Origin: a virus | Taxonomy: Duplodnaviria; Heunggongvirae; Uroviricota; Caudoviricetes | Virus record (IMG/VR): IMGVR_UViG_2645727991_000019 | Span: 1-31,402 of that record | Reading direction: 5' to 3' (one strand) | DNA: 31,402 nucleotides | Shown: positions 6,664-28,060 of the stretch, in pieces | Position numbering within the stretch: the stretch's first letter is position 1 | How the letters are laid out: each line of letters opens with the position of its first letter | The notes under the pieces: generated by a model | Seen by the model: the letters and a program-made list of their open reading frames with translations, nothing else | What the model was told of the DNA's origin: nothing | Databases searched by the model: none | Program-made: the position numbers and the translations under genes

Positions 6664-7257
6664 CTATTTGTCCCGGTTGGCTAAGGGATGACACAATTTA
6701 TTCTTTGTCGCTGATGAGGGGAATTTTTTATAGAGCGTGGACAGGCCAATATCAAAAATCAGCGCCACGCGTTGACGTGATTCACCCGCAGCCAGCAACC
6801 GTCCTGCCTGTTCCCACTCACTCGCGGTGAGCTTCGGACGTCTGCCACCAATACGACCTTTAGCTCTGGCCGCTTCCAGTCCGGCGCGTGTCCGCTCGAC
6901 AATGAGTTCTCGTTCCATTTCAGCCAGGGCACCCATCACATGAAAGAAAAAACGCCCCATCGGCGTGCTGGTATCAATAGCATCCGTCAGGCTGCGAAAA
7001 TTAACGCCGCGTTCGCGCAGTTCCTCAACCAGAATGACCAGATGCCGCATACTACGCCCCAGCCTGTCCAGCTTCCAGACCACCAGTGTATCCCCCTCCG
7101 ATAATGTCCTGAGCAGTTTTTTCAGTCCCGGTCGGTCGGACTTAGTGCCGCTGATTTTATCCTCAAAAATCAGCTCACATCCTGCGCACTCCAGCGCGTT
7201 ACGCTGCAATTCCGTGTTCTGGTCATTTGTTGACACGCGTACATAGCCAATAAGCAT
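6664..7257 (-). CDS. Serine site-specific DNA invertase (Hin/Gin/Cin/Pin family)
   Basis: From the Met at 7257 the protein starts MLIGYVRVSTNDQNTELQRNAL..., the canonical resolvase/invertase N-terminus with the catalytic Ser in the VRVST motif. A strong AGGGGGA Shine-Dalgarno sits 5 nt upstream of this ATG. It lies immediately outside the left crossover site of the invertible segment. Confidence 0.9.
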   Translation of the reverse strand: MLIGYVRVSTNDQNTELQRNALECAGCELIFEDKISGTKSDRPGLKKLLRTLSEGDTLVVWKLDRLGRSMRHLVILVEELRERGVNFRSLTDAIDTSTPMGRFFFHVMGALAEMERELIVERTRAGLEAARAKGRIGGRRPKLTASEWEQAGRLLAAGESRQRVALIFDIGLSTLYKKFPSSATKNKLCHPLANRDK

Positions 7258-7312
7258 GAGCATCCCCCTGAATAAAAACCGGAGATGATGCCAGTTGCCC
7301 GTTATCTCTGCA

Positions 7313-7338
7313 TTTTCATAAACGTTGGTTTAGGAGAA
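7313..7338. repeat. Left 26-bp inversion crossover site (hix/gix-like)
   Basis: TTTTCATAAACG-TT-GGTTTAGGAGAA is an imperfect palindrome with a central TT dinucleotide. Its right half-site matches 11 of 12 positions of the half-site at 9189..9214 in inverted orientation. Confidence 0.8.
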
Positions 7339-7836
7339 GGCTCAGCATTGCCTGTTGGCGTACCTGTTCCGTGGCCCTCAGCCACTCCGCCAACAGGCTG
7401 GCTGAAATGCAACGGAGCAGCTTTTTCTGCTGAAGAATACCCGGAACTGGCAAAGGCTTACCCGACAAATAAATTGCCTGATTTACGCGGTGAATTTATT
7501 CGTGGCTGGGATGACGGACGTGGTATGGATACGGGGAGGGCAATATTATCCGCTCAGGGCGATGCCATACGTAATATCTATGGTGAGTTCAAGACTGTAA
7601 ACACCGAAAATTATTCAATATGGGAATCAGTAGGCTCTTTTAAGGGGGCAGTGGTGCCTTTGAACCCCTCAACGAACAATAGTTATTTCTCCTTAATCAG
7701 AAGTATGGTGACAGAAAGAACAGATGGCGCTGTTTACCCAAAAGTGATTGGCCTTGATGCTTCAAGAATTGTTCCAACTGCAAACGAAAACCGTCCACGT
7801 AACATCGCCTTTAATTATATTGTGAGGGCTGCATAA
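7313..7836 (+). CDS. Silent alternative tail-fibre C-terminal cassette (Sv'-like, tail-collar motif); promoterless in this orientation
   Basis: The open frame continues in phase from the GLGE codons of the crossover site and encodes ...VPVPWPSATPPTGWLKCNGAAFSAEEYPELAKAYPTNKLPDLRGEFIRGWDDGRGMD..., the classic phage tail-collar motif of Mu S and P1 S variable fibre parts. The ORF-track start at 7285 precedes the crossover site and is probably not a real start. Confidence 0.8.
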
Positions 7837-8429
7837 TGAAACCTGTTTTTGATGAAAATGGGCTGGCTACAGTGCCGGGTGATATGCGTTGTTTTTATTA
7901 TGATGCAGTAACGTCTGAATATACGGGCTGGTCTGATGAATATATTAATACTGGCGTAAGTATGCCCGCCTGTTCCACTGGTATTGACCCGGGCGAATAC
8001 ATTCCGGGGAAAGTGGCAGTATTTACGGGTAAGGGATGGAGCCATGAAGAAGACCACCGCAATGAGACTGTTTACTCAATCGAAAATGGCGCAGCTGTTA
8101 CAGTGGATTATATCGGTGCCATCAAAGACGGTTATGTCACGCTTTCACCGTTAACGCCATACGATAAATGGGATGGTGAGAAATGGGTGACAGATACTGA
8201 GGCACAGCATAGTGCCGCACTAGACGCGGCAGAAGCACAGCGCCAGTCGCTGATTGATGCTGCAATGGCTTCCATCAGTCTGATTCAACTGAAATTACAG
8301 GCCGGGCGGAAGCTGACGCAGGCAGAAACAACCCGACTTAACGCCGTGCTGGATTATATTGACGCGGTGACGGTAACAGATACCAGCACTGCGCCGGATG
8401 TCATCTGGCCTGAACTGCCGGAGGCGTAG
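7836..8429 (+). CDS. Tail fibre assembly protein (chaperone for the silent cassette, U'-like)
   Basis: 197-aa ORF directly following the silent fibre cassette (the ATG overlaps its stop). Its C-terminal region (LDYIDAVTVTDTSTAPDVIWPELPEA) resembles the C-terminus of the opposite-strand tfa (LDYLDTLELVDTSGAPDIEWPTPP). Confidence 0.82.
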   Translation: MKPVFDENGLATVPGDMRCFYYDAVTSEYTGWSDEYINTGVSMPACSTGIDPGEYIPGKVAVFTGKGWSHEEDHRNETVYSIENGAAVTVDYIGAIKDGYVTLSPLTPYDKWDGEKWVTDTEAQHSAALDAAEAQRQSLIDAAMASISLIQLKLQAGRKLTQAETTRLNAVLDYIDAVTVTDTSTAPDVIWPELPEA

Positions 8430-8841
8430 GCCATTCAATATCTGGCGCACCGGAAGTATCGACCAGTTCCAGTGTGTCCAGATAATCCAGCCACAAATTA
8501 TATTGCGCCAGTTCCTCACCTTTCAGGCGACCAATCGCCGCTTTACCAGGCCATTGCTTACTGTTTATGTATTCGTTGACCTGATTAATCAATTGCTGCT
8601 TTTCCAGTTCGGCTGCGGCAATTTGTTCCTCATGAGTTGGCGGTGGAATATCAATCCATGCAGGCATTCCGTCGATGACACCTCTGTATTTTCCTTCTGG
8701 TGCTTCCTTCATAAATTCGGCGGCAACAGTGTCGTCAATTTCGATTCCATCATCGGGCCATTCGCCGGATTCCTGATAAGCGATTTTAAGCTCCACAGGG
8801 AAAAACGCATTTTTATCGGCACTGAAAATATATTTCTGCAT
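8401..8841 (-). CDS. Tail fibre assembly protein (chaperone for the currently expressed fibre, G/U-like)
   Basis: 146-aa ORF immediately downstream of H, converging on and overlapping the 3' end of the plus-strand tfa; it carries the conserved tfa C-terminal motif. Confidence 0.85.
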   Translation of the reverse strand: MQKYIFSADKNAFFPVELKIAYQESGEWPDDGIEIDDTVAAEFMKEAPEGKYRGVIDGMPAWIDIPPPTHEEQIAAAELEKQQLINQVNEYINSKQWPGKAAIGRLKGEELAQYNLWLDYLDTLELVDTSGAPDIEWPTPPAVQAR

Positions 8842-8843
8842 TT

Positions 8844-10028
8844 CTACCGTCCTATCGAAATATAACTGAATCTGTATTGCTGTGAGATATCACTGGTTGC
8901 CACACGCCACGCTGAATTACTGATATGTTCAAAATTTACAGACAAAACCTGCAGGGCAGGATTCGACGGGTCTGACTGAACGGCATCAGACATAACACTG
9001 ACTGAAACCATCGGCTGATTAGGGAATGGTATAGGGAAGTGTCCACTGATAAAGCGGGTCGTGTTTCCTGAAAAAGTGCCAAACTGAACAATATATCCAC
9101 CTGGTAGCCTGAACCATCCCGAACCAGAAGCGAATGCTCCCATATCCGGTATCTGATTATCTCCTGTGCCCACATCCCTTTTCGCCGCTTCTCCCAAACC
9201 AAGGTATGCGAGAAGACCAGCTACATCCTTTCCACTCAAATGAGTCAGCGTCTCATCCAGTGGCTGCTTACCTGACAGCGCATTGTTAATGGTGGCGCTG
9301 AATTTCGGGTCATTGTTGATAGCTGCGGCAATTTCTTTCAGTGTGTCCAGCGTGTCAGGGGCACCGTTAATCAGAGCGGTAATAGCGGCCTGTACAAACG
9401 CAGTGGTCGCAATCCGCGTGGTGTTATTTCCTGCGGCAGGCGTCGGCGCTTTTGGTTCTCCGGTAAATGTCGGATTATGTTTCTGTGCATACTGGGTATG
9501 AGGGTCCTGTGCGGCAATGTGGTTTCTCATCTGGTCATCCACATACAGCTTTAATTCCAGGACTTCATCATCCACGTATTTACGGGTCGCCAGTACCACC
9601 GACGGGTCGATTTTCAGCGTGATGGCTTCGGTATTCGTGACAACCAGAATCATGCGGATAGTCTGGGTACGACCGCTGCCTTCCTGCAACTGCGGTTTGT
9701 ACGTTTCCGGGCAGTTCGCCACCGCAATGAGTACGCCTTCATCATCATAAAGCCCAATCTCACGGATCCAGAATCCGCCCTCGTTCTCAGGGATGATTTG
9801 CTCCGCAATAATCTGGCTCTGGTTGTTCGGGTCAACACTCAGAAGATTCAGCGGCGCGATGCGTTTCTGGTTAATCAGTTTTGTCTGTGCCGGGTCTGGT
9901 GTCGGCAAGACACCATTCGCATCACCAACGGCCATTTGCGTCAGATTCAGCTTACTGCCGAGCATCGTCGCGTTAGCCAGCCGTGCTGCGCCCTGATTAG
10001 TCAGAATGGCGTAGTATTTCACTGTCAT
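8844..10028 (-). CDS. H: Tail fibre protein H (constant N-terminal part fused to the currently expressed variable C-terminal cassette)
   Basis: The N-terminus MTVKYYAILTNQGAARLANATMLGSKLNLTQMAVGDANGVLP... is the conserved P2-family fibre N-terminal domain. The reading frame passes through the crossover site at 9189..9214, where it encodes AYLGLGE, and continues into the variable part. Confidence 0.88.
   Translation of the reverse strand: MTVKYYAILTNQGAARLANATMLGSKLNLTQMAVGDANGVLPTPDPAQTKLINQKRIAPLNLLSVDPNNQSQIIAEQIIPENEGGFWIREIGLYDDEGVLIAVANCPETYKPQLQEGSGRTQTIRMILVVTNTEAITLKIDPSVVLATRKYVDDEVLELKLYVDDQMRNHIAAQDPHTQYAQKHNPTFTGEPKAPTPAAGNNTTRIATTAFVQAAITALINGAPDTLDTLKEIAAAINNDPKFSATINNALSGKQPLDETLTHLSGKDVAGLLAYLGLGEAAKRDVGTGDNQIPDMGAFASGSGWFRLPGGYIVQFGTFSGNTTRFISGHFPIPFPNQPMVSVSVMSDAVQSDPSNPALQVLSVNFEHISNSAWRVATSDISQQYRFSYISIGR
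9189..9214. repeat. Right 26-bp inversion crossover site (hix/gix-like) inside H
   Basis: TTCTCCCAAACC-AA-GGTATGCGAGAA; its left half-site resembles the gix/hix half-site consensus and is the inverted copy of the half-site at 7327..7338. Confidence 0.8.
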
Positions 10029-19557: not shown

Positions 19558-19730
19558 TGTCAGGAGTCCTGAATAGTGATTAGAGGAGTCACATGTCGGC
19601 ATCAGTTTCCCGACGATGCGCATCCTCCGCCATCAGTCCCGGATGGCTTATCACTGACACAACAGCACCTTAGCGAATCGCGGGGCGCGACTCAGTAGCC
19701 TTGCCGTGTATTCATCACGGCGAGGTATTC
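19558..19730. promoter_or_regulatory. Divergent late promoter region between O and P (expected Ogr-dependent promoters)
   Basis: This is the intergenic region between the divergently transcribed O (minus) and P (plus) operons; in P2 it carries the Ogr-activated PO and PP promoters. I found no perfect TGT-N12-ACA element by eye, so exact sites are not mapped. Confidence 0.45.
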
Positions 19731-21503
19731 ATGACCATCACCACAGACACCACTCTTTTACACGACCCGCGTCGTCAGGCGGCGCTGCTGTACTGGCAGG
19801 GATTTTCCGTGCCGCAGATTGCCGCCATGTTGCAGATGAAACGCCCGACGGTGCAGAGCTGGAAACAGCGCGACGGCTGGGACAGTGTTGCCCCCATCAG
19901 CCGTGTCGAAATGAGTCTGGAAGCGCGGCTGACCCAGCTCATCATCAAACCGCAGAAAACCGGCAGTGACTTCAAGGAAATTGACCTGCTCGGACGCCAG
20001 ATTGAACGACTGGCACGGGTAAACCGCTACAGCCAGACCGGCAACGAGGCAGACCTTAATCCGAACATCGCTAACCGCAACAAAGGCGGGCGGCGCAAAC
20101 CGAAAAAGAATTTTTTCAGCGACGAGGCTATCGAAAAGCTGGAGCAGATTTTCTTTGAGCAGTCTTTCGAATATCAGTTGCACTGGTATCGCGCCGGGCT
20201 TGAGCACCGCATCCGCGATATCCTGAAATCCCGCCAGATTGGCGCGACATTTTATTTTTCCCGCGAGGCGCTGCTGCGCGCCCTGAAAACCGGCCATAAC
20301 CAGATTTTTCTGTCGGCCAGTAAAACGCAGGCGTATGTGTTCCGCGAATACATCATCGCCTTTGCCCGTCTGGTTGACGTTGACCTGACCGGTGACCCGA
20401 TTGTCCTGGGCAATAACGGCGCAAAACTGATTTTTCTCGGCACCAACTCCAACACCGCGCAGAGCCATAACGGCGACCTGTACGTCGATGAGATTTTCTG
20501 GATCCCGAATTTTCAGGTACTGCGTAAGGTGGCATCAGGTATGGCCTCACAGAGCCACCTGCGCTCGACCTATTTCTCCACCCCGTCCACGCTGGCGCAC
20601 GACGCCTACCCGTTCTGGTCGGGTGAACTGTTTAACCGGGGACGCGCCAGCGCCGCCGAACGCGTGGAAATCGACGTCAGTCATAACGCCCTTGCCGGTG
20701 GGCTTCTCTGTGCGGACGGCCAGTGGCGACAGATTGTCACCATTGAGGACGCCCTGAAAGGTGGCTGCACGCTGTTCGACATTGAGCAGCTTAAACGCGA
20801 AAACAGCGCCGACGATTTTAAAAACCTGTTCATGTGTGAATTTGTTGACGACAAGGCGTCGGTATTCCCGTTCGAGGAGCTGCAACGCTGCATGGTCGAC
20901 ACGCTGGAAGAATGGGAAGACTATGCGCCGTTTGCCGCCAATCCGTTCGGCTCACGCCCGGTATGGATTGGTTACGACCCGTCACACCGTGGCGACAGTG
21001 CCGGATGCGTGGTGCTGGCACCGCCGGTGGTGGCCGGTGGCAAATTCAGAATACTTGAGCGTCACCAGTGGAAAGGCATGGACTTTGCCACCCAGGCTGA
21101 ATCCATCCGCAAACTCACCGAAAAATATAACGTTGAATACATCGGTATTGATGCCACCGGCCTCGGTGTCGGCGTGTTCCAGCTCGTGCGCTCGTTCTAT
21201 CCCGCCGCGCGCGACATCCGCTACACGCCGGAAATGAAAACCGCAATGGTGCTCAAGGCAAAAGACGTTATCCGCCGTGGCTGTCTGGAATATGACGTCA
21301 GCGCCACCGACATCACCAGCTCGTTTATGGCTATCCGCAAGACCATGACCAGCAGCGGACGCAGCGCCACCTATGAGGCCAGCCGCAGCGAGGAAGCCAG
21401 CCACGCCGACCTCGCCTGGGCGACCATGCACGCCCTGTTAAATGAGCCACTCACCGCCGGTATCAGCACCCCGCTGACATCCACCATTCTGGAGTTTTAC
21501 TGA
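19731..21503 (+). CDS. P: Terminase ATPase (large) subunit P
   Basis: From the ATG at 19731 the protein starts MTITTDTTLLHDPRRQAALLYWQGFSVPQIA... (590 aa), with a GAGGT Shine-Dalgarno upstream. The ORF-track start at 19701 is a TTG. Confidence 0.9.
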   Translation: MTITTDTTLLHDPRRQAALLYWQGFSVPQIAAMLQMKRPTVQSWKQRDGWDSVAPISRVEMSLEARLTQLIIKPQKTGSDFKEIDLLGRQIERLARVNRYSQTGNEADLNPNIANRNKGGRRKPKKNFFSDEAIEKLEQIFFEQSFEYQLHWYRAGLEHRIRDILKSRQIGATFYFSREALLRALKTGHNQIFLSASKTQAYVFREYIIAFARLVDVDLTGDPIVLGNNGAKLIFLGTNSNTAQSHNGDLYVDEIFWIPNFQVLRKVASGMASQSHLRSTYFSTPSTLAHDAYPFWSGELFNRGRASAAERVEIDVSHNALAGGLLCADGQWRQIVTIEDALKGGCTLFDIEQLKRENSADDFKNLFMCEFVDDKASVFPFEELQRCMVDTLEEWEDYAPFAANPFGSRPVWIGYDPSHRGDSAGCVVLAPPVVAGGKFRILERHQWKGMDFATQAESIRKLTEKYNVEYIGIDATGLGVGVFQLVRSFYPAARDIRYTPEMKTAMVLKAKDVIRRGCLEYDVSATDITSSFMAIRKTMTSSGRSATYEASRSEEASHADLAWATMHALLNEPLTAGISTPLTSTILEFY

Positions 21504-22537
21504 TGAGCAAGAAAAAAGGGAAAACACCGCAACCTGCGGCAAAAAAAATGACCGCCAGCGCCCCGAAAATGGAGGCATTCACCTTTGGTGAGCCGGTGCC
21601 GGTACTCGACCGCCGTGACATTCTGGATTACGTCGAGTGCATCAGTAACGGCAGATGGTATGAGCCGCCGGTCAGTTTTACCGGTCTGGCAAAAAGCCTG
21701 CGTGCTGCCGTGCATCACAGCTCACCGATTTACGTCAAACGCAATATTCTGGCTTCAACGTTTATTCCGCATCCGTGGCTTTCCCAGCAGGATTTCAGCC
21801 GCTTTGTGCTGGATTTTCTGGTGTTCGGTAATGCGTTTCTGGAAAAGCGTTACAGCACCACTGGTAAGGTTATCAGGCTGGAAACCTCTCCGGCAAAATA
21901 TACCCGCCGTGGTGTGGAAGAGGATGTGTACTGGTGGGTGCCGTCCTTCAACGAGCCGACAGCCTTCACGCCCGGCTCCGTGTTTCACCTGCTGGAGCCG
22001 GATATTAATCAGGAGCTGTACGGTCTGCCGGAATATCTCAGCGCCCTTAATTCTGCCTGGCTGAATGAGTCGGCCACGCTGTTCCGCCGCAAGTATTACG
22101 AAAACGGCGCTCATGCCGGATATATCATGTACGTCACCGATGCCGTGCAGGATCGCAACGATATCGAAATGCTTCGCGAAAACATGGTCAAGTCGAAAGG
22201 CCGCAACAACTTTAAAAACCTGTTTCTCTATGCCCCACAGGGGAAAGCCGACGGCATTAAAATTATCCCCCTCAGTGAAGTGGCGACGAAGGACGATTTT
22301 TTTAATATCAAAAAAGCCAGCGCCGCTGACCTGCTGGACGCGCACCGCATCCCCTTTCAGTTGATGGGCGGCAAGCCGGAGAACGTCGGGTCGCTGGGTG
22401 ATATTGAGAAAGTGGCAAAGGTCTTTGTCCGCAATGAACTTATCCCGTTACAGGACAGAATTCGGGAAATAAACGGCTGGCTCGGTCAGGAGGTCATCCG
22501 CTTTAAAAACTACTCACTGGACACTGACAACGGCTGA
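21503..22537 (+). CDS. Q: Portal (capsid vertex) protein Q
   Basis: 344-aa ORF immediately downstream of P (ATGA overlap), followed by a terminator and the cos site. Confidence 0.9.
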   Translation: MSKKKGKTPQPAAKKMTASAPKMEAFTFGEPVPVLDRRDILDYVECISNGRWYEPPVSFTGLAKSLRAAVHHSSPIYVKRNILASTFIPHPWLSQQDFSRFVLDFLVFGNAFLEKRYSTTGKVIRLETSPAKYTRRGVEEDVYWWVPSFNEPTAFTPGSVFHLLEPDINQELYGLPEYLSALNSAWLNESATLFRRKYYENGAHAGYIMYVTDAVQDRNDIEMLRENMVKSKGRNNFKNLFLYAPQGKADGIKIIPLSEVATKDDFFNIKKASAADLLDAHRIPFQLMGGKPENVGSLGDIEKVAKVFVRNELIPLQDRIREINGWLGQEVIRFKNYSLDTDNG

Positions 22538-22725: not shown

Positions 22726-23055
22726 CGCCCGCTTCATGGGGCGGTTTTGATGCAATACATGAGCATCGTAATGCCATATCGTGACAGGATTATAGAACAT
22801 GAAGGTATACTAACTTACACATGCAAAAAAACGCACACTCAGGCATTCTCTTTGGAATACAATATGGTAAAAATATGATCATTTGAAGCTGCATATCCGC
22901 GCAGATTGAAATCAATGATGCTGCCCCTTCGTTAAGACAGCCAGGCCGCAATCTCTTGAGCTCAAGTGGACATCTAAGACAGAAAAACAATTTAAAGGCA
23001 AAGTTTTCGTAATGGTATCTTTGTCACAGCACACGCTAAAAAGGAACTAAACCTC

Positions 23056-24120
23056 ATGAGCACTCAGCAAGTCCTCAACATCCCTACAGCCGTATCGCAA
23101 GCGACCATCGAAAAATGGTTGAAAGGACTGGAACAGACAACGGAATTAGCCTTTTTTCGCCGTGTTGGCGGGCGGCATGGCTTCAATGTTACGAGCCGCT
23201 GGGCAAGTACATTGGATAACTTGAATAAAACTCTGAATGACCCATCGAAGCAAGGTACGCCTGCAAACTTTTCAAATCTCCGTTTGATTACGTTAAAAAT
23301 AATCACTAGCGTAAACCATTATTATTCAATTGATAGTATTAAATCAGGAACCATTAATTTAATACCAAATATAATCAACTACCCTCACCTCGATAAAACA
23401 TTTAGCTCAGTATTTCCAATAAAACTTGATGATAATACAGGACTTCCTTCGACTCCTGGGCATTTCATTACTTCCATCGAAAAAATGGGGGATGGTATTG
23501 CTGTAATATATTCCTATATTATTTTAAGAAAAATCCAAGGAAGGAGTAAGCTACGTAGCAATCAATATCCAGAGCAGTACTTCAACACTGTTTTCATCCC
23601 TAATGATTTAAGCCGTATAGAATATCGGGTTGATAAATCACTAGGTAAAAGAGCGTCTGAAAAAGCGATGGCAGATTTGCGCGCAAAATTTAATGAATTA
23701 CTCGTGGAACTTAATATTAAGTTAGCTGTTGAAACTATAAATTTCTACAAAGCAATTTCCAATATTTACCTTGACAAACAATATGGAAGACTTGTTCAGG
23801 TTAATTTCCTTGATCCAAATGGAGATGAGGATGCTGTTCTTCGTTGTAGAACAGACCCCAATTATGATGCCCGTTATCGCGAGGTTGTATCTAAAACTCA
23901 GAACGGAACACCTCGCTCATTGACCCTTGAAGTTTCTGGCGTTGCAGTGCGATTAGATAGTAAAGTTGCAAACGAAACAATTTCAAATGAAATTGGTTTT
24001 GAACCCAGCAAAACTGATTGGTCTACAAACAAATTTTGTGGGGATTTTTATTTTACACAAACAGCAGATCATCAGGTGCATTATGGGGTGATAAATGATT
24101 TACTCACAAGAGCGAAATAA
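23056..24120 (+). CDS. Hypothetical protein, first gene of the low-GC cargo operon (354 aa); no family recognised
   Basis: ATG start with an AAGGA Shine-Dalgarno about 10 nt upstream. Composition is AT-rich, and I see no Walker or other recognisable motifs. Confidence 0.75.
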   Translation: MSTQQVLNIPTAVSQATIEKWLKGLEQTTELAFFRRVGGRHGFNVTSRWASTLDNLNKTLNDPSKQGTPANFSNLRLITLKIITSVNHYYSIDSIKSGTINLIPNIINYPHLDKTFSSVFPIKLDDNTGLPSTPGHFITSIEKMGDGIAVIYSYIILRKIQGRSKLRSNQYPEQYFNTVFIPNDLSRIEYRVDKSLGKRASEKAMADLRAKFNELLVELNIKLAVETINFYKAISNIYLDKQYGRLVQVNFLDPNGDEDAVLRCRTDPNYDARYREVVSKTQNGTPRSLTLEVSGVAVRLDSKVANETISNEIGFEPSKTDWSTNKFCGDFYFTQTADHQVHYGVINDLLTRAK

Positions 24121-24529
24121 AAAAATGCGCTCATTAGTGTATAAACAAAGAGTACTCCTGGAGAATGCCGGAAGCTCTTCTGTTTTCATAAATAATGATT
24201 CTCACATATATTATACAAATTTACTAGAATATGTAGAGGGTGATCTTGATCGTAATATTTATACAATCCCAGTATTACGAAAAGCCATAAAAACTGACAA
24301 TTATGAACATTTGCTACGAGTTGTTCAATTTTTTAGTAGCAATACCTCTTGTTTATTTAACGTTAAATATTGCTACGAACTAGAAAACATGGAGTTTGAG
24401 GACATACAAGCTGATGAATATACCAACTATATATTAAACGGAGTTGAACCTGTAACTGCCAATGGTTCTGAAATTGAAGACTTCAATCCAAAATATCTTT
24501 CATTTTATTGCATAATAAACCTGGATTGA
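24095..24529 (+). CDS. Hypothetical small protein, second gene of the cargo operon (144 aa, or 134 aa from the Met at 24125)
   Basis: ORF overlapping the end of gene 1 by 26 nt if it starts at 24095 (GGGGTG Shine-Dalgarno-like sequence upstream), or starting 4 nt after the gene 1 stop if it starts at 24125. It ends 5 nt before the gene 3 ATG. Confidence 0.65.
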   Translation: MIYSQERNKKMRSLVYKQRVLLENAGSSSVFINNDSHIYYTNLLEYVEGDLDRNIYTIPVLRKAIKTDNYEHLLRVVQFFSSNTSCLFNVKYCYELENMEFEDIQADEYTNYILNGVEPVTANGSEIEDFNPKYLSFYCIINLD

Positions 24530-24534
24530 CTGTC

Positions 24535-25389
24535 ATGAACAAACAACAAATCACATGTGAGTTAGGCAAAAGGGTTCATTTTGAAGATGAAGCGAGTTTT
24601 ATTGAAACATTATACTCGGATATAGAAGTCATAATAAAACTAATGGAGCAATCTAGTGACAAGTATTATTGTGATGATGAAGATAAACTAAGCCATACAA
24701 TTGTAGCCTCTCTTGTACACCTAGGTTACGATGCAACCGAACAAACAAAAAAAAATGGAAGTGTGGACATAACCGTTCGTCCGAAAAATGGAGGATATAC
24801 ATGGATTGCTGAAGCAAAAATCGGATACGGGAACCAAAAAATATTCGAGGGGCTACTTCAGTTGCTTACTCGCTATGTTAAAAGAGATAATCATGCAGGC
24901 ATGGTTATCTATTATCAAAAATCAAAGTCATCTTATCATTTCAAACAATGGCTGAAATACATATACAACCATGAGTGGAAGGATTATTGTACAAAGAAAG
25001 GGTCATTAAAAAAAGCGACTCCGCTACTTTCTCATTTAAAAAGTACGGTTTGTCCGAAAGTCAAACAAGGCTGTTGTTATGCTGACATTGATGTCATCCA
25101 ACCTTCGACTGATGGTCTAAAACTTCGCTGCTTCTATATTGACGTGCATCATGACCCAATTGACAGTAGTGGTTTAAAGAATAAGTCAATCGCCTTTGGT
25201 CAAGCCCAAAATAGAATTAGAGATTTATATCACTTATGGAAGACAGGACAGTTCGACGGCAGTATGATAGATGAATTATTTGAAGAAATAAAAATATATC
25301 ATAGCAATGAACTTGACGAAGAATATGAAGATGAAGATGAAGATGAAGATGAAGATGAAGATGAAGACTCGAATATAAACTCGAAATGA
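24535..25389 (+). CDS. Hypothetical protein with a PD-(D/E)xK-like nuclease core motif and an acidic (ED)n C-terminal tail, third gene of the cargo operon (284 aa)
   Basis: ATG at 24535 (the ORF-track start at 24508 is a TTG). The motif GSVDITV followed 12 residues later by WIAEAKIG fits a hydrophobic-D ... E-x-K restriction-endonuclease-fold signature. The C-terminus reads EEYEDEDEDEDEDEDEDSNINSK. Confidence 0.75.
   Translation: MNKQQITCELGKRVHFEDEASFIETLYSDIEVIIKLMEQSSDKYYCDDEDKLSHTIVASLVHLGYDATEQTKKNGSVDITVRPKNGGYTWIAEAKIGYGNQKIFEGLLQLLTRYVKRDNHAGMVIYYQKSKSSYHFKQWLKYIYNHEWKDYCTKKGSLKKATPLLSHLKSTVCPKVKQGCCYADIDVIQPSTDGLKLRCFYIDVHHDPIDSSGLKNKSIAFGQAQNRIRDLYHLWKTGQFDGSMIDELFEEIKIYHSNELDEEYEDEDEDEDEDEDEDSNINSK
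25327..25368 (+). repeat. Tandem hexanucleotide repeat (GAAGAT)6 plus GAAGAC, encoding the (ED)n tail
   Basis: Perfect tandem GAAGAT units are seen directly in the sequence at the 3' end of cargo gene 3. Confidence 0.9.
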
Positions 25390-25402
25390 ACACCAAGAAT
25401 CA

Positions 25403-25436
25403 CCCCATTAAGTTTAGACATCCTAACTTGATGGGG
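25403..25436. terminator. Putative bidirectional terminator hairpin between the convergent cargo operon and gene A
   Basis: CCCCATTAAGTT - 10-nt loop - AACTTGATGGGG forms a 12-bp stem with one mismatch, followed on the plus strand by AATTGACTTTT. Confidence 0.5.
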
Positions 25437-25524
25437 AATTGACTTTTAAGTCTGTAACCCTAGCCATCAAAAATAGATTCATTTTAAATAAAAATATATC
25501 CGTTACGCCCCAAAAAAAATTGAA

Positions 25525-27795
25525 TTAATTAGGAAAAACACTCCCAGTTGGAATTTTTTTAAATTTATATTTCCTCCCATCGAAACATACTGTCGCACCG
25601 CGTGCTAATACCTGTGGTTCCCATTGATTCGGCGTAATACCCTCCTGAGCCAACTCGAATCTTATACGTGGCGTCTGTTCCCGTTCAGCTTTTGTCATTC
25701 GTCCTGAGGGCGCTATCTGATAAGGTTTTAATGGCTCACAGCTCTTTTGCTGGCGATTTGGTCGTGGCGCATCGTGTTTTAGTGCGCATCTGAGCACCGT
25801 CACGACTTCAGGGTCATCCCAGCCGATAACCCCGCGCTCAATCAGATTCAACACCGCTGCTGCTTGCTCAGAAGGTATGGATGTCATAGCAGGATCGCCA
25901 CCGCTAGTTAGCTTTCCACAGTTATTGACAGGACTCCGAGGCGCGGCGATGCCGCTTTTTAAAGTCAAAGGCTCAACGACCGGAACTTTCGGCACAATGC
26001 GCCAGTCCGTCGTTCTGGTGATATGAATATGACGCGCGCCGAGATGCGGCGCGTAAATGCCGACCACTCTCTCGACTTCTTCCTCGTACTCGTTAACTTC
26101 ATCCGACGGACTACGGGCAACCCTGACAGTCTGACAATCGCGCGGAACATTTGCCCCACCCTGCGCGCTGATATACAACGCAAAATCACCACTGTCTGCG
26201 GCAGCGCGTGCAGCCTCGACGCGTTCGTCAAACTCATCAGCAATGCTGACGCCGCGAGGCAATTTGCGTAGTTCACGGTAAGCCCCCATTGTCGGCAGGC
26301 CAACCGTTTTAAATTGCGGAATGCGCCACGTTGATGCCCATGCGGTAACAGCCGCGGCAGTGTCTTTCAGCGGCCTGCCGGTATCGTTATCGAGCTGACC
26401 ATCCAGTGCATAGCCATCGATGTTTTTTGAGATGTATTTCGCGATATACCCCGCAGCACCGCCCCGGTTAAGGTGTTTTGCCTGAAAACGGTTTCGCGCA
26501 GCTCCTCTTTCGTCGCCATCCTCTTTGAGCGCGTAGCGACGCATGATTTCAATAATCTGGTTACGCTGGCGTGGATTACAAAAAAGCATCATATGCCAGT
26601 GCGGCGTTCCGTCGTGGTGTGGCTCGACGACACGCAAACCGTAGACCTGTAAATCATTATCCTTGAATGCCGTTCGCATCAGGCTCCAGATATGGCAGAG
26701 ATAACGCTGCGCATCCTTTGGATTAAATGCCTCATCGTTCCAGCCGTGATTTAGCTGGACGGTTTTACTTTCGCCTTTTCCGACCTGACGTGTCGGGTGA
26801 TACTTTGACGGCGCGGTCAGCGTGATAAACATCCCCACATCACCCTCTGCTGCGGCGTAACGCTCAATACCGGCAATGGTGTTCATCAGCTCCATCCGGC
26901 GAATTTCAGGATTAGAAATACTGCCCATCACCTTACTGATAAGGTCGATGCGCTCGCCGGTTTCCCTGTTTTCGAGATCACACGATTTAAGAAATTCCAG
27001 ATTTGCCTGGCGGCGTGCACGCACATCACGAATGGCATGTTTACTGGCATAAGGAGAACGGTCTTTATTGACCTCCCCGACAGCAATCAGTAACGCCTCA
27101 TGCCAGCGCATACGCTGGCCTTTGAGCTGATGAGTCCACCACTCATCGTTAAACAGACGGGCAATGGCAGAATATGCCTGCCTCGTGGTCATCTGTCCTT
27201 TACGGTATTTTTTCCAGTAAAGCGGGGAAATATTGAAAGCACGTGCAGCGCCAGCAACATGACCATAGAGGTGAGCCTGCGCCTCATCCGTAAACAGCGA
27301 TTCTTTTTCGCCATGTGCATCCACCCAGGCATCGCTGAGTTCCTCATACATCATGAAAAGCTGCGATGAGATACGGGCGGCAAACTTTTTCAGCTCCTTG
27401 TCATTCATTCCCGGCAGGCGCGCATAGTGGTCACGCTCTGCCAGAAACAGCAACGACGCGTCGGTGTTCATTTCATGGCGCTGATTCACACGCTCAATGC
27501 GCGGCCATAAACGACGCTGAAAAGTGGATGTGAGGAAATAAAACCCGTGCACCGGGCTTTTATTGCGCCGGATGTAGTCATAGCGTGAAGTAAACAGCGA
27601 GCGCAAAAAGTAAGGCAGGCGGTTAATCGTGGATAAAACACCTTGCACCTGACGCATCTCGTCACGTGTAAGGGGTCTTTCGCGCCCGACGGCCTCGCGT
27701 GGCGCGTTCCATGCATAAGCACCGGTAAACGTCTTACCGGTGCCTGCGGCAAATGCTGACGGAGGGACAAAACGCCCGGAGGCTTTAACGGCCAT
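25525..27795 (-). CDS. A: Replication initiation protein A (rolling-circle nickase)
   Basis: Large ORF; from the Met at 27795 the protein starts MAVKASGRFVPPSAFAAGTGK..., matching the P2 gpA N-terminus as I recall it. The ORF-track start at 27837 adds 14 residues and would overlap the upstream gene by 53 nt. Confidence 0.88.
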   Translation of the reverse strand: MAVKASGRFVPPSAFAAGTGKTFTGAYAWNAPREAVGRERPLTRDEMRQVQGVLSTINRLPYFLRSLFTSRYDYIRRNKSPVHGFYFLTSTFQRRLWPRIERVNQRHEMNTDASLLFLAERDHYARLPGMNDKELKKFAARISSQLFMMYEELSDAWVDAHGEKESLFTDEAQAHLYGHVAGAARAFNISPLYWKKYRKGQMTTRQAYSAIARLFNDEWWTHQLKGQRMRWHEALLIAVGEVNKDRSPYASKHAIRDVRARRQANLEFLKSCDLENRETGERIDLISKVMGSISNPEIRRMELMNTIAGIERYAAAEGDVGMFITLTAPSKYHPTRQVGKGESKTVQLNHGWNDEAFNPKDAQRYLCHIWSLMRTAFKDNDLQVYGLRVVEPHHDGTPHWHMMLFCNPRQRNQIIEIMRRYALKEDGDERGAARNRFQAKHLNRGGAAGYIAKYISKNIDGYALDGQLDNDTGRPLKDTAAAVTAWASTWRIPQFKTVGLPTMGAYRELRKLPRGVSIADEFDERVEAARAAADSGDFALYISAQGGANVPRDCQTVRVARSPSDEVNEYEEEVERVVGIYAPHLGARHIHITRTTDWRIVPKVPVVEPLTLKSGIAAPRSPVNNCGKLTSGGDPAMTSIPSEQAAAVLNLIERGVIGWDDPEVVTVLRCALKHDAPRPNRQQKSCEPLKPYQIAPSGRMTKAEREQTPRIRFELAQEGITPNQWEPQVLARGATVCFDGRKYKFKKIPTGSVFPN

Positions 27796-28060
27796 ATGAG
27801 CTAAAAGCCTCTGAACAACGCTTGCTGAGTTGCTCAACCTGCGCGTTTAAATCAGCAAAAGACTTTGCGCTTCCGGTAAGAATATCGTGATGCATCAGGC
27901 CGGAAACGAGCTGGCTTAATTTCGGGTAATAACCAACCACCGCCAGCCATTCCTGGCCGGCGTTTTTACCGCTTTCCGCTCTCTTTTTCTCGTGGAGAAT
28001 AAACTGAAAGCTGTCACTGGTAACGACATAACGTTCGCCAATTTCGATACGAATACTCAT
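27785..28060 (-). CDS. Early-operon hypothetical protein (position of P2 orf83)
   Basis: 91-aa ORF immediately upstream of A in the early operon. Confidence 0.6.
   Translation of the reverse strand: MSIRIEIGERYVVTSDSFQFILHEKKRAESGKNAGQEWLAVVGYYPKLSQLVSGLMHHDILTGSAKSFADLNAQVEQLSKRCSEAFSSYGR

Follow-up and report, generated by a model that had tools for sequence, protein, structure and literature searches.

The window analyzed here is the whole 31,402-nucleotide (nt) stretch of IMG/VR virus record IMGVR_UViG_2645727991_000019 (Duplodnaviria; Heunggongvirae; Uroviricota; Caudoviricetes), and it is a P2-like prophage. Between the gpQ (portal)–cos region and gpA lies a cargo island of about 2.8 kb (22755–25520), which is low in guanine and cytosine (GC; 32–38% vs 51–59% in the flanks) and contains three closely packed genes; all island features given below are on the plus strand. 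Gene 1 (23056–24120; 354 amino acids, aa) encodes a protein with a predicted RdgC/RexA/CENP-L fold, a putative DNA-binding sensor or scaffold, gene 2 (24095–24529; 144 aa) encodes a small acidic protein that is co-conserved with genes 1 and 3, and gene 3 (24535–25389; 284 aa) encodes a predicted nuclease with the PD-(D/E)xK (restriction-endonuclease) fold. Gene 2 overlaps gene 1 by 26 nt, and gene 3 starts 5 nt beyond the end of gene 2.

The gene 3 open reading frame (ORF) begins with ATG at 24535 and ends with TGA at 25387–25389, and its start is the same as the RefSeq start in two E. coli genomes. An upstream TTG start at 24508, proposed by the ORF lister, was rejected, as it overlaps gene 2 and has no homologue backing.

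Predicted fold and active site of the gene 3 product

The initial annotation of this DNA had recognized a PD-(D/E)xK-like nuclease core in gene 3 from a hydrophobic-D-x(12)-E-x-K arrangement. The arrangement is present in the peptide NGSVDITVRPKNGGYTWIAEAKIGYG (residues 74–99), but its spacer is 14 residues long rather than 12, giving the layout V77-D78-x14-E93-A94-K95. In shuffled versions of gene 3, the pattern [hydrophobic]-D-x(10-20)-[DE]-x-K is found at least one time in 55% of cases, and the D...ExK motif by itself therefore carries no evidential weight. The annotation had itself cautioned that the motif might be coincidental. Judged from the alignments of relatives, the signal that goes beyond chance is the conservation of the residues and not the pattern that they form.

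A word-indexed search recovered 53 homologous clusters of gene 3, and an exhaustive profile search with HMMER, run over 1.84 billion representatives, recovered 709 at an expectation value (E) ≤1e-3 and 494 at E ≤1e-10. The conservation alignment contains 199 relatives, of which 145 are representatives from clustering at ≤50% identity. D78, E93, K95, and Q109 are unchanged in 198 of the 198 aligned relatives covering each position, E49 is Glu in all 197 aligned sequences, and R113 and Y114 are each kept in 197 of 198. Gly75 (G75) is invariant wherever it is covered, and W90, A94, and G106 are nearly invariant. A second motif, P-x-D-x-S-G/A (P208-I-D210-S-S212-G213; 25156–25173), is invariant in one alignment (A1); in the 199-sequence alignment, its P, D, and S are kept wherever the segment aligns (about 140–155 of the 199 sequences, the others being gapped).

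An AlphaFold2 model of gene 3 was built on a 34-sequence alignment (mean predicted local distance difference test score, pLDDT, 84.7; predicted template modeling score, pTM, 0.78), and secondary structure was assigned with DSSP. The modeled nuclease core, residues ~45–128 (24667–24918), holds all of the invariant motif residues and consists of helix 49–62, strands 66–68, 79–82, and 90–96, helix 100–114, and strand 120–127, which is the canonical alpha-beta-beta-beta-alpha-beta order. E49 (24679–24681), an invariant acidic residue, opens the core helix at its N-terminus; D78 (24766–24768), the "D" of PD, lies directly before strand 2 (79–82); and E93-A94-K95 (24811–24819), the (D/E)xK element, lies within strand 3 (90–96). 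Such a placement of an acidic residue, D, and (D/E)xK is canonical for the PD-(D/E)xK superfamily. Q109, R113, and Y114 (Q109-L-L-T-R113-Y114; 24859–24876) are carried by the helix that follows the ExK strand. The second motif occupies a loop after a beta-hairpin (residues 182–203; strands 182–188 and 194–203), and could provide an extra metal ligand or an interface. A structure prediction had been proposed as the check on the nuclease core, and its outcome, a canonical core order with D78 and E93-x-K95 on the expected elements, together with the conservation of the motif residues in about 198 relatives, supports the assignment.

In the fold comparison, the best matches of the model are dimeric BamHI-type enzymes, with a sequence identity of 9–12%. 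The next matches are AF1548, DUF820, VRR_NUC, McrC, BpuSI, CdiA-CT, NucS, Hjc, Cas4, FAN1, and HamA, nearly all of which have the restriction-endonuclease fold. Gene 3 shares with BamHI-like enzymes (BamHI, OkrAI, BstYI, BglII) the alpha-beta-beta-beta-alpha-beta core, the acidic residue on the first helix, the D before strand 2, and acidic-x-(K/E/Q) in strand 3. The active site of BamHI is E77/D94/E111/E113, and the counterparts in gene 3 are E49/D78/E93/K95. Gene 3 differs from these enzymes in that it has no methyltransferase, is always linked to two other genes, and has the P-x-D-x-S-G motif in addition; its clade also adds C-terminal helices and a tail.

Several results weigh against this assignment. 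Foldseek gave no significant match for the gene 3 model in the PDB; the top restriction-enzyme match was HindIII (E 0.03–0.06; probability 0.63–0.75), and BamHI was at E 0.58. Searches of Pfam, NCBIfam, and PDB sequences with gene 3 or its profile returned no nuclease family match, and Pfam DpnII-MboI (PF18742) has no match to gene 3 (hmmscan, E ≤1). If these nulls and the ease with which shuffles yield the pattern are taken together, the D...ExK pattern could be a coincidence and gene 3 not a nuclease. The absence of any change in the motif residues across 198 relatives, their canonical positions on a confident model, and an HHpred-based label, "DpnII-MboI", reached independently (Rousset Table S5B), make this exceedingly improbable. 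Overall, it is highly likely that gene 3 has the restriction-endonuclease fold, and likely, with somewhat less assurance, that it is an active nuclease. It is very probably a metal-dependent PD-(D/E)xK enzyme with the putative catalytic set E49/D78/E93-x-K95, backed by Q109, R113, and Y114. On the basis of the model, it is classed as a new sequence family inside the PD-(D/E)xK superfamily, structurally nearest to the BamHI-type enzymes.

The conserved domain spans residues ~15–215, whereas helices 217–255 are restricted to a subfamily of about 270 aa. By profile match, the gene 3 family is phrog_9664 (function not described), which matches residues 1–213 at E 7.5e-74, and the family, with about 700 clusters at 50% identity, lies outside Pfam. 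One gene 3 orthologue bears the UniRef title "Restriction endonuclease". Positions 230–369 of PADLOC PDC-S54 match gene 3 residues 13–147 at E 2.8e-7. PDC-S54 is a single-gene candidate of 410 positions whose N-terminal 229 positions have no counterpart in gene 3, and the match is, to judge from its extent, one of shared domain and not of membership.

The same domain also occurs in larger proteins. In 8 of the best 150 profile matches (P0102, P0110, P0118, P0130, P0140, P0143, P0168, and P0199), it forms the C-terminal part of a protein of 712–1226 aa, with homology to gene 3 at E 1e-27 to 1e-36. Seven of the eight have an N-terminal NACHT or NB-ARC NTPase (P0143 has only a weak AAA_16 match), and seven have central HEAT repeats (P0199 has none). 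Some of these fused proteins match PADLOC HEAT-type defense models, and one matches PDC-S54. The NACHT/HEAT–nuclease architecture is that of bacterial NLR-like immune proteins. In the Avs proteins known to us the effector is N-terminal, whereas the nuclease here is C-terminal, after the repeats. The fusion to STAND NTPases indicates that the gene 3 domain is a regulated output module, and this agrees with the effector role that the initial annotation had proposed for gene 3. Gene 3 and the STAND/NLR-like (Avs-type) NTPases thus have in common a homologous nuclease domain, which in the latter is a C-terminal module, but gene 3 has no NTPase or repeat sensor; a Pfam hmmscan found no NTPase domain in genes 1–3, and sensing would fall to genes 1 and 2.

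The acidic C-terminal tail

The C-terminal region of gene 3 ends ...ELDEEYEDEDEDEDEDEDEDSNINSK, and the tail itself, residues 256–284 (HSNELDEEYEDEDEDEDEDEDEDSNINSK; 25300–25386), has a net charge of −17 and is predicted to be disordered, with pLDDT <50 for residues 264–284 in the AlphaFold2 model. The initial annotation described the C-terminus as an uninterrupted acidic run; this needs correction, as in DEEY-EDEDEDEDEDED-SNINSK one Tyr interrupts the run and six non-acidic residues close the protein. The Glu-Asp run is encoded by a hexanucleotide tandem repeat, (GAAGAT)7.8 (25321–25367; Tandem Repeats Finder, TRF, score 87). The number of Glu-Asp units is 6 in the window, 7 in E. coli ZH177, and 4 in A23, with identical flanks, and Rousset Table S5B prints an allele with 5.

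In a set of 69 full-length relatives, what follows the last helix is 3–35 aa long and has a net charge of −17 to +7, the window representing the −17 extreme. Long acidic tails occur only in the nearest Enterobacterales clade (net-acidic, 7–29 aa), two clades have lysine-rich tails with a charge of up to +7, and relatives of 200–237 aa lack the tail region entirely. In most relatives, the tail is absent or lysine-rich. The poly-(Glu-Asp) run therefore looks like a slippage product of the GAAGAT repeat and not like a conserved functional element, and the tail is probably a recent, lineage-specific, disordered appendage outside the conserved mechanism. One point weighs against a wholly dispensable tail, namely that a short (D/E)PDD-like C-terminal motif is frequent in more distant relatives; because this motif recurs in many of them, mild selection for C-terminal negative charge is possible.

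A regulatory function had been suggested for the tail, through nucleic-acid mimicry, autoinhibition of the nuclease, or partner binding. In its present form, this reading would have the Glu-Asp tail act as a nucleic-acid mimic that autoinhibits the nuclease, or as a dock for a basic protein, for instance gene 1. The charges would suit such a role: the tail-less nuclease core is basic (isoelectric point, pI, 8.0), as is gene 1 (pI 9.1), and the tail lowers gene 3 to pI 5.2; moreover, net-acidic tails occur throughout the nearest clade, and the (D/E)PDD motif further out. The tail is nevertheless confined to a clade, missing or of opposite charge elsewhere, predicted to be disordered, without any conserved residue in the alignment, and variable in length by slippage between otherwise identical alleles. 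Taken together, these observations make a regulatory tail unlikely, and the suggestion was not sustained, although the tail might still have a modulatory part in this particular allele.

Linkage, partners, and proposed role of the cassette

Order and strand of the three genes (the trio) are kept at every one of the 15 distinct loci with enough upstream sequence, and the linkage extends to members that are <30% identical and to one alphaproteobacterium (Methylobacterium). The trio is found in P2-like hotspots in E. coli, Serratia, and Rahnella; in a lambdoid prophage of Citrobacter, adjoining int/xis; in seven Stx1a-converting phages, between the antiterminator gene Q and stx1AB; in a Vinavirales element of Vibrio, adjoining its integrase; in a Mu-like neighborhood of Enterovibrio; in a Rouxiella element with a Toprim/DUF927 primase; in an integrase and Macro-domain island of Photobacterium; in islets between housekeeping genes in Shewanella and Methylobacterium; and in metagenomic contigs, adjoining HsdR and ApeA-HEPN, or ParE/Phd. 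In phage Stx1_499 (LC567825.1 13614–15721; L025 1993–4100), the trio proteins have 350, 130, and 221 aa and are encoded on the strand opposite to stx1A/stx1B; in all seven Stx1a-converting phage genomes, they are annotated as hypothetical. Vibrio phage 10N.247.311.62_PE001 (PQ189315.1; L026 1351–3626) carries the trio in a 14.8-kb tailless, PM2-like Vinavirales element, and the cassette therefore crosses unrelated virus realms.

In E. coli ZH177 (NZ_CM125652.1 1824355–1838977; L001), the prophage is decayed, its terminase, gpV (baseplate V), gpA, and a regulator gene being annotated as incomplete. The intact state of all three cargo genes in it suggests that the cargo has been kept by selection. 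No methyltransferase was found in the island, which has three genes only, or beside the trio in 15 other loci. A trait that is generic to defense systems is observed, in that the trio occupies a validated hotspot and islands on diverse mobile elements.

The gene 1 model is confident (pLDDT 88.7; pTM 0.87); it matches RdgC, CENP-L, Iml3, CENP-N, and Chl4, and its alignment was supplemented with five distant homologues from a profile search. This set of structural relatives is also the one reported for RexA of lambda, which binds DNA non-specifically and is the sensor in Rex exclusion (PMC11077077). Profile comparison gave no sequence signal between gene 1 and lambda RexA or E. coli RdgC (hhalign vs RexA, probability 0.1), and the kinship of gene 1 to RdgC/RexA, as modeled, is by fold only. 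A basic gene 1 (pI 9.1) is a feature of the close clade, whereas distant orthologues are acidic, which counts against a DNA-binding protein; DNA binding is proposed from the similarity of the predicted fold. That gene 1 is a DNA-sensing component is accordingly put forward as a tentative proposal.

Gene 2 is hydrophilic and acidic (pI 4.7, and 4.7–6.1 in orthologues; grand average of hydropathy, GRAVY, −0.36). Neither it nor its orthologues have a match in Pfam, PADLOC, PHROG, NCBIfam, or PDB, or an assignable fold, which counts against the mechanism proposed below. A CARF reading of gene 2 was considered and rejected: one distant orthologue (L009 1406–1825) matches PADLOC CARF models at E 6e-4, and the match does not recur in the window protein or in two other orthologues, so that it is probably due to chance.

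Within a strictly co-conserved three-gene cassette that is carried at accessory loci of mobile elements, gene 3 comes last and probably encodes the effector, and a defense role of this cassette is favored, with slightly less confidence. The cassette would be an anti-phage or inter-element defense module whose nuclease stays inactive as long as no infection occurs. Gene 1 would bind DNA or a replication or recombination intermediate, like RdgC and RexA, and gene 2 would be an adaptor or inhibitor, together with which gene 1 would release or assemble the nuclease. The nuclease would then cleave nucleic acid, in all likelihood DNA, belonging to the invader or to both invader and host. Activation would probably proceed via oligomerization, which is suggested by the dimeric state of the BamHI-type enzymes that match best in structure and by the use of the domain as an effector of STAND NTPases. 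The most far-reaching form of this proposal, that the trio is a new and widespread phage-borne immune system in which an RdgC/RexA-fold sensor of invading or replicating phage DNA acts through a small acidic adaptor on a BamHI-like nuclease, as a soluble, nuclease-armed counterpart of Rex whose nuclease module has been independently recruited by STAND/NLR sensors, is possible rather than probable.

A cassette of this kind might instead be mainly a toxin–antitoxin or addiction module, in which the nuclease is the toxin and gene 2 (or gene 1) the antitoxin, and which stabilizes the prophage or island. The small size, consistent acidity, and translational coupling to the nuclease of gene 2 would fit an antitoxin, and the intact trio in a decayed prophage and in isolated chromosomal islets between housekeeping genes would fit addiction. 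Three strictly co-conserved genes, however, exceed a two-part pair, PADLOC and Pfam searches returned no toxin–antitoxin family match, the domain serves as an effector of STAND NTPases, and the cassette is found in validated defense hotspots; a primarily addictive function is thus unlikely, although toxin–antitoxin and defense roles are not mutually exclusive. Less probable still is a service to the life cycle of the phage itself, such as a part in recombination, in the resolution of junctions, or in the breakdown of host DNA in the lytic phase. PD-(D/E)xK enzymes do include resolvases and recombination nucleases (and Hjc and RecU-like folds are among the matches), RdgC is a recombination-associated protein, and many temperate phages carry the cassette. 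A life-cycle function is difficult to reconcile with a gene set that only a minority of the P2-like prophages carry (2 of 5426 complete E. coli genomes; 14 of 18,150 hotspot occurrences recorded by Rousset et al.), that is found at accessory loci of unrelated phage types and at non-phage chromosomal sites, and that is intact in a dead prophage.

The similarity to BamHI-type enzymes raises the further reading that gene 3 is a solitary BamHI/BglII-type, sequence-specific type II restriction enzyme, constitutively active on unmodified incoming DNA. It is the structural resemblance that speaks for this, but at 9–12% identity to BamHI/BglII-type enzymes, with no methyltransferase in the island or the homologous loci examined, with gene 3 always linked to genes 1 and 2, and with a STAND NTPase fusion that implies regulated and not constitutive activity, such an enzyme is very improbable.

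The defense reading agrees with the published record of the locus. The trio is P2-hotspot system #145, "DUF5939 | DpnII-MboI", with 14 occurrences in E. coli P2 hotspots, its label being derived from HHpred; it appears only as a catalogue entry, outside the set that Rousset et al. (2022) took forward for cloning (PMC9122126). Its three proteins are essentially those of the window: in the part of the system #145 sequence that is visible in the source, gene 1 has one substitution and gene 3 differs by a single repeat unit. The "DUF5939" part of the label was followed as a clue and set aside: a P4-hotspot "DUF5939/Mrr_cat" protein (first 399 aa) has no Pfam match and no profile similarity to gene 1. 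Literature searches with PDC-S54, the RefSeq accessions, RdgC and defense, DpnII-MboI/DUF5939, and KwaB and RdgC found no paper covering the trio in the library searched.

Lambda RexAB is one of the closest described systems, being likewise prophage-encoded and pairing an RdgC/RexA/Iml3/Chl4-fold protein with an effector. The effector of the trio is, however, a soluble nuclease, whereas RexB is a four-helix membrane protein; the trio also has a third component and no sequence similarity to RexA or RdgC. A P4 RexA-like protein has no similarity to any gene of the trio. The 3HP system of Rousset et al. consists of three hypothetical proteins and protects against P1 (PMC9122126). Neither 3HP (pFR109 proteins 1–3) nor Tin has similarity to the trio (BLASTP, hidden Markov model, and hhalign comparisons all non-significant), the PADLOC models of 3HP, Tin/Old, and Hachiman do not match it, and the trio has no helicase partner, in contrast to Hachiman HamA. 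The trio is not 3HP, Tin/Old, Hachiman, or RexAB.

The nuclease assignment is in itself unremarkable, and the acidic tail probably matters little to the mechanism. Of greater value is the finding at the system level, a widely mobile cassette that is predicted to pair an RdgC/RexA-fold protein with a BamHI-like nuclease. If the trio protects against phages, the defense repertoire gains a compact system of three genes (about 2.4 kb) whose partner proteins match no described system. The trio would link the RdgC/RexA fold to a nuclease effector, which bears on how Rex-like sensors recognize infection, and the occurrence of the domain both free-standing and fused to NACHT/HEAT proteins points to an effector that is reused between immune architectures. 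The distribution of the cassette over Stx1a-converting, P2-like, lambdoid, Mu-like, and Vinavirales elements could also influence how prophages of clinical relevance exclude superinfecting phages. If the immune-system reading is true, the trio between Q and stx1AB would count among the accessory weapons of a phage group of medical importance.

Prophage backbone and hotspot surroundings

The P2 backbone of the window includes terminase (19701–21503), portal gpQ (21503–22537), replication endonuclease gpA (25525–27837, minus strand, with the end of its ORF at 25525), and integrase (30407 onward), together with Cox and C-type repressor genes. Up to about 22750, the backbone matches, in a comparison made by eye without alignment, the P2 sequence in front of old-tin as cloned by Rousset et al. 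The gpA–gpQ interval of P2-like phages is a validated anti-phage defense hotspot (PMC9122126). Carriers of the island account for 2 of 5426 complete E. coli genomes, and in both, all three genes are annotated as hypothetical.

Promoter-like sites in the island are only modestly more frequent than in shuffles in a consensus scan. The candidate cassette promoter, TTGGAA-16-TATGAT (22852–22879), is the sole plus-strand promoter-like site in the 300-bp stretch from the P2 backbone to gene 1. The end of the operon is possibly marked by an inverted repeat of 12 nt (CCCCATTAAGTT/AACTTGATGGGG; 92% complementary; 25403–25436) that lies beyond the stop codon of gene 3. The consensus scan found no canonical terminator after gene 3, and the repeat is not called a terminator because no T-run stands behind it.

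The P2-like prophages of Rahnella and Serratia each have one more ORF in the hotspot, placed after the portal gene and before the trio: that of Rahnella (L018 4264–5328) has 355 aa and no Pfam match, and that of Serratia (L017 5485–5997) has 171 aa. These ORFs may be further cargo.

Elsewhere in the window, a serine recombinase gene (Resolvase and HTH_7 domains; 6664–7263, minus strand) adjoins a tail-collar fragment and a tail-fiber assembly gene that are present as copies in opposite orientation (7285–8429, plus strand), and these inverted copies in turn adjoin the active tail-fiber genes (8401–10028, minus strand). The region 6664–8429 is a Cin/Gin-type invertible host-range segment between the tail fiber and sheath genes.

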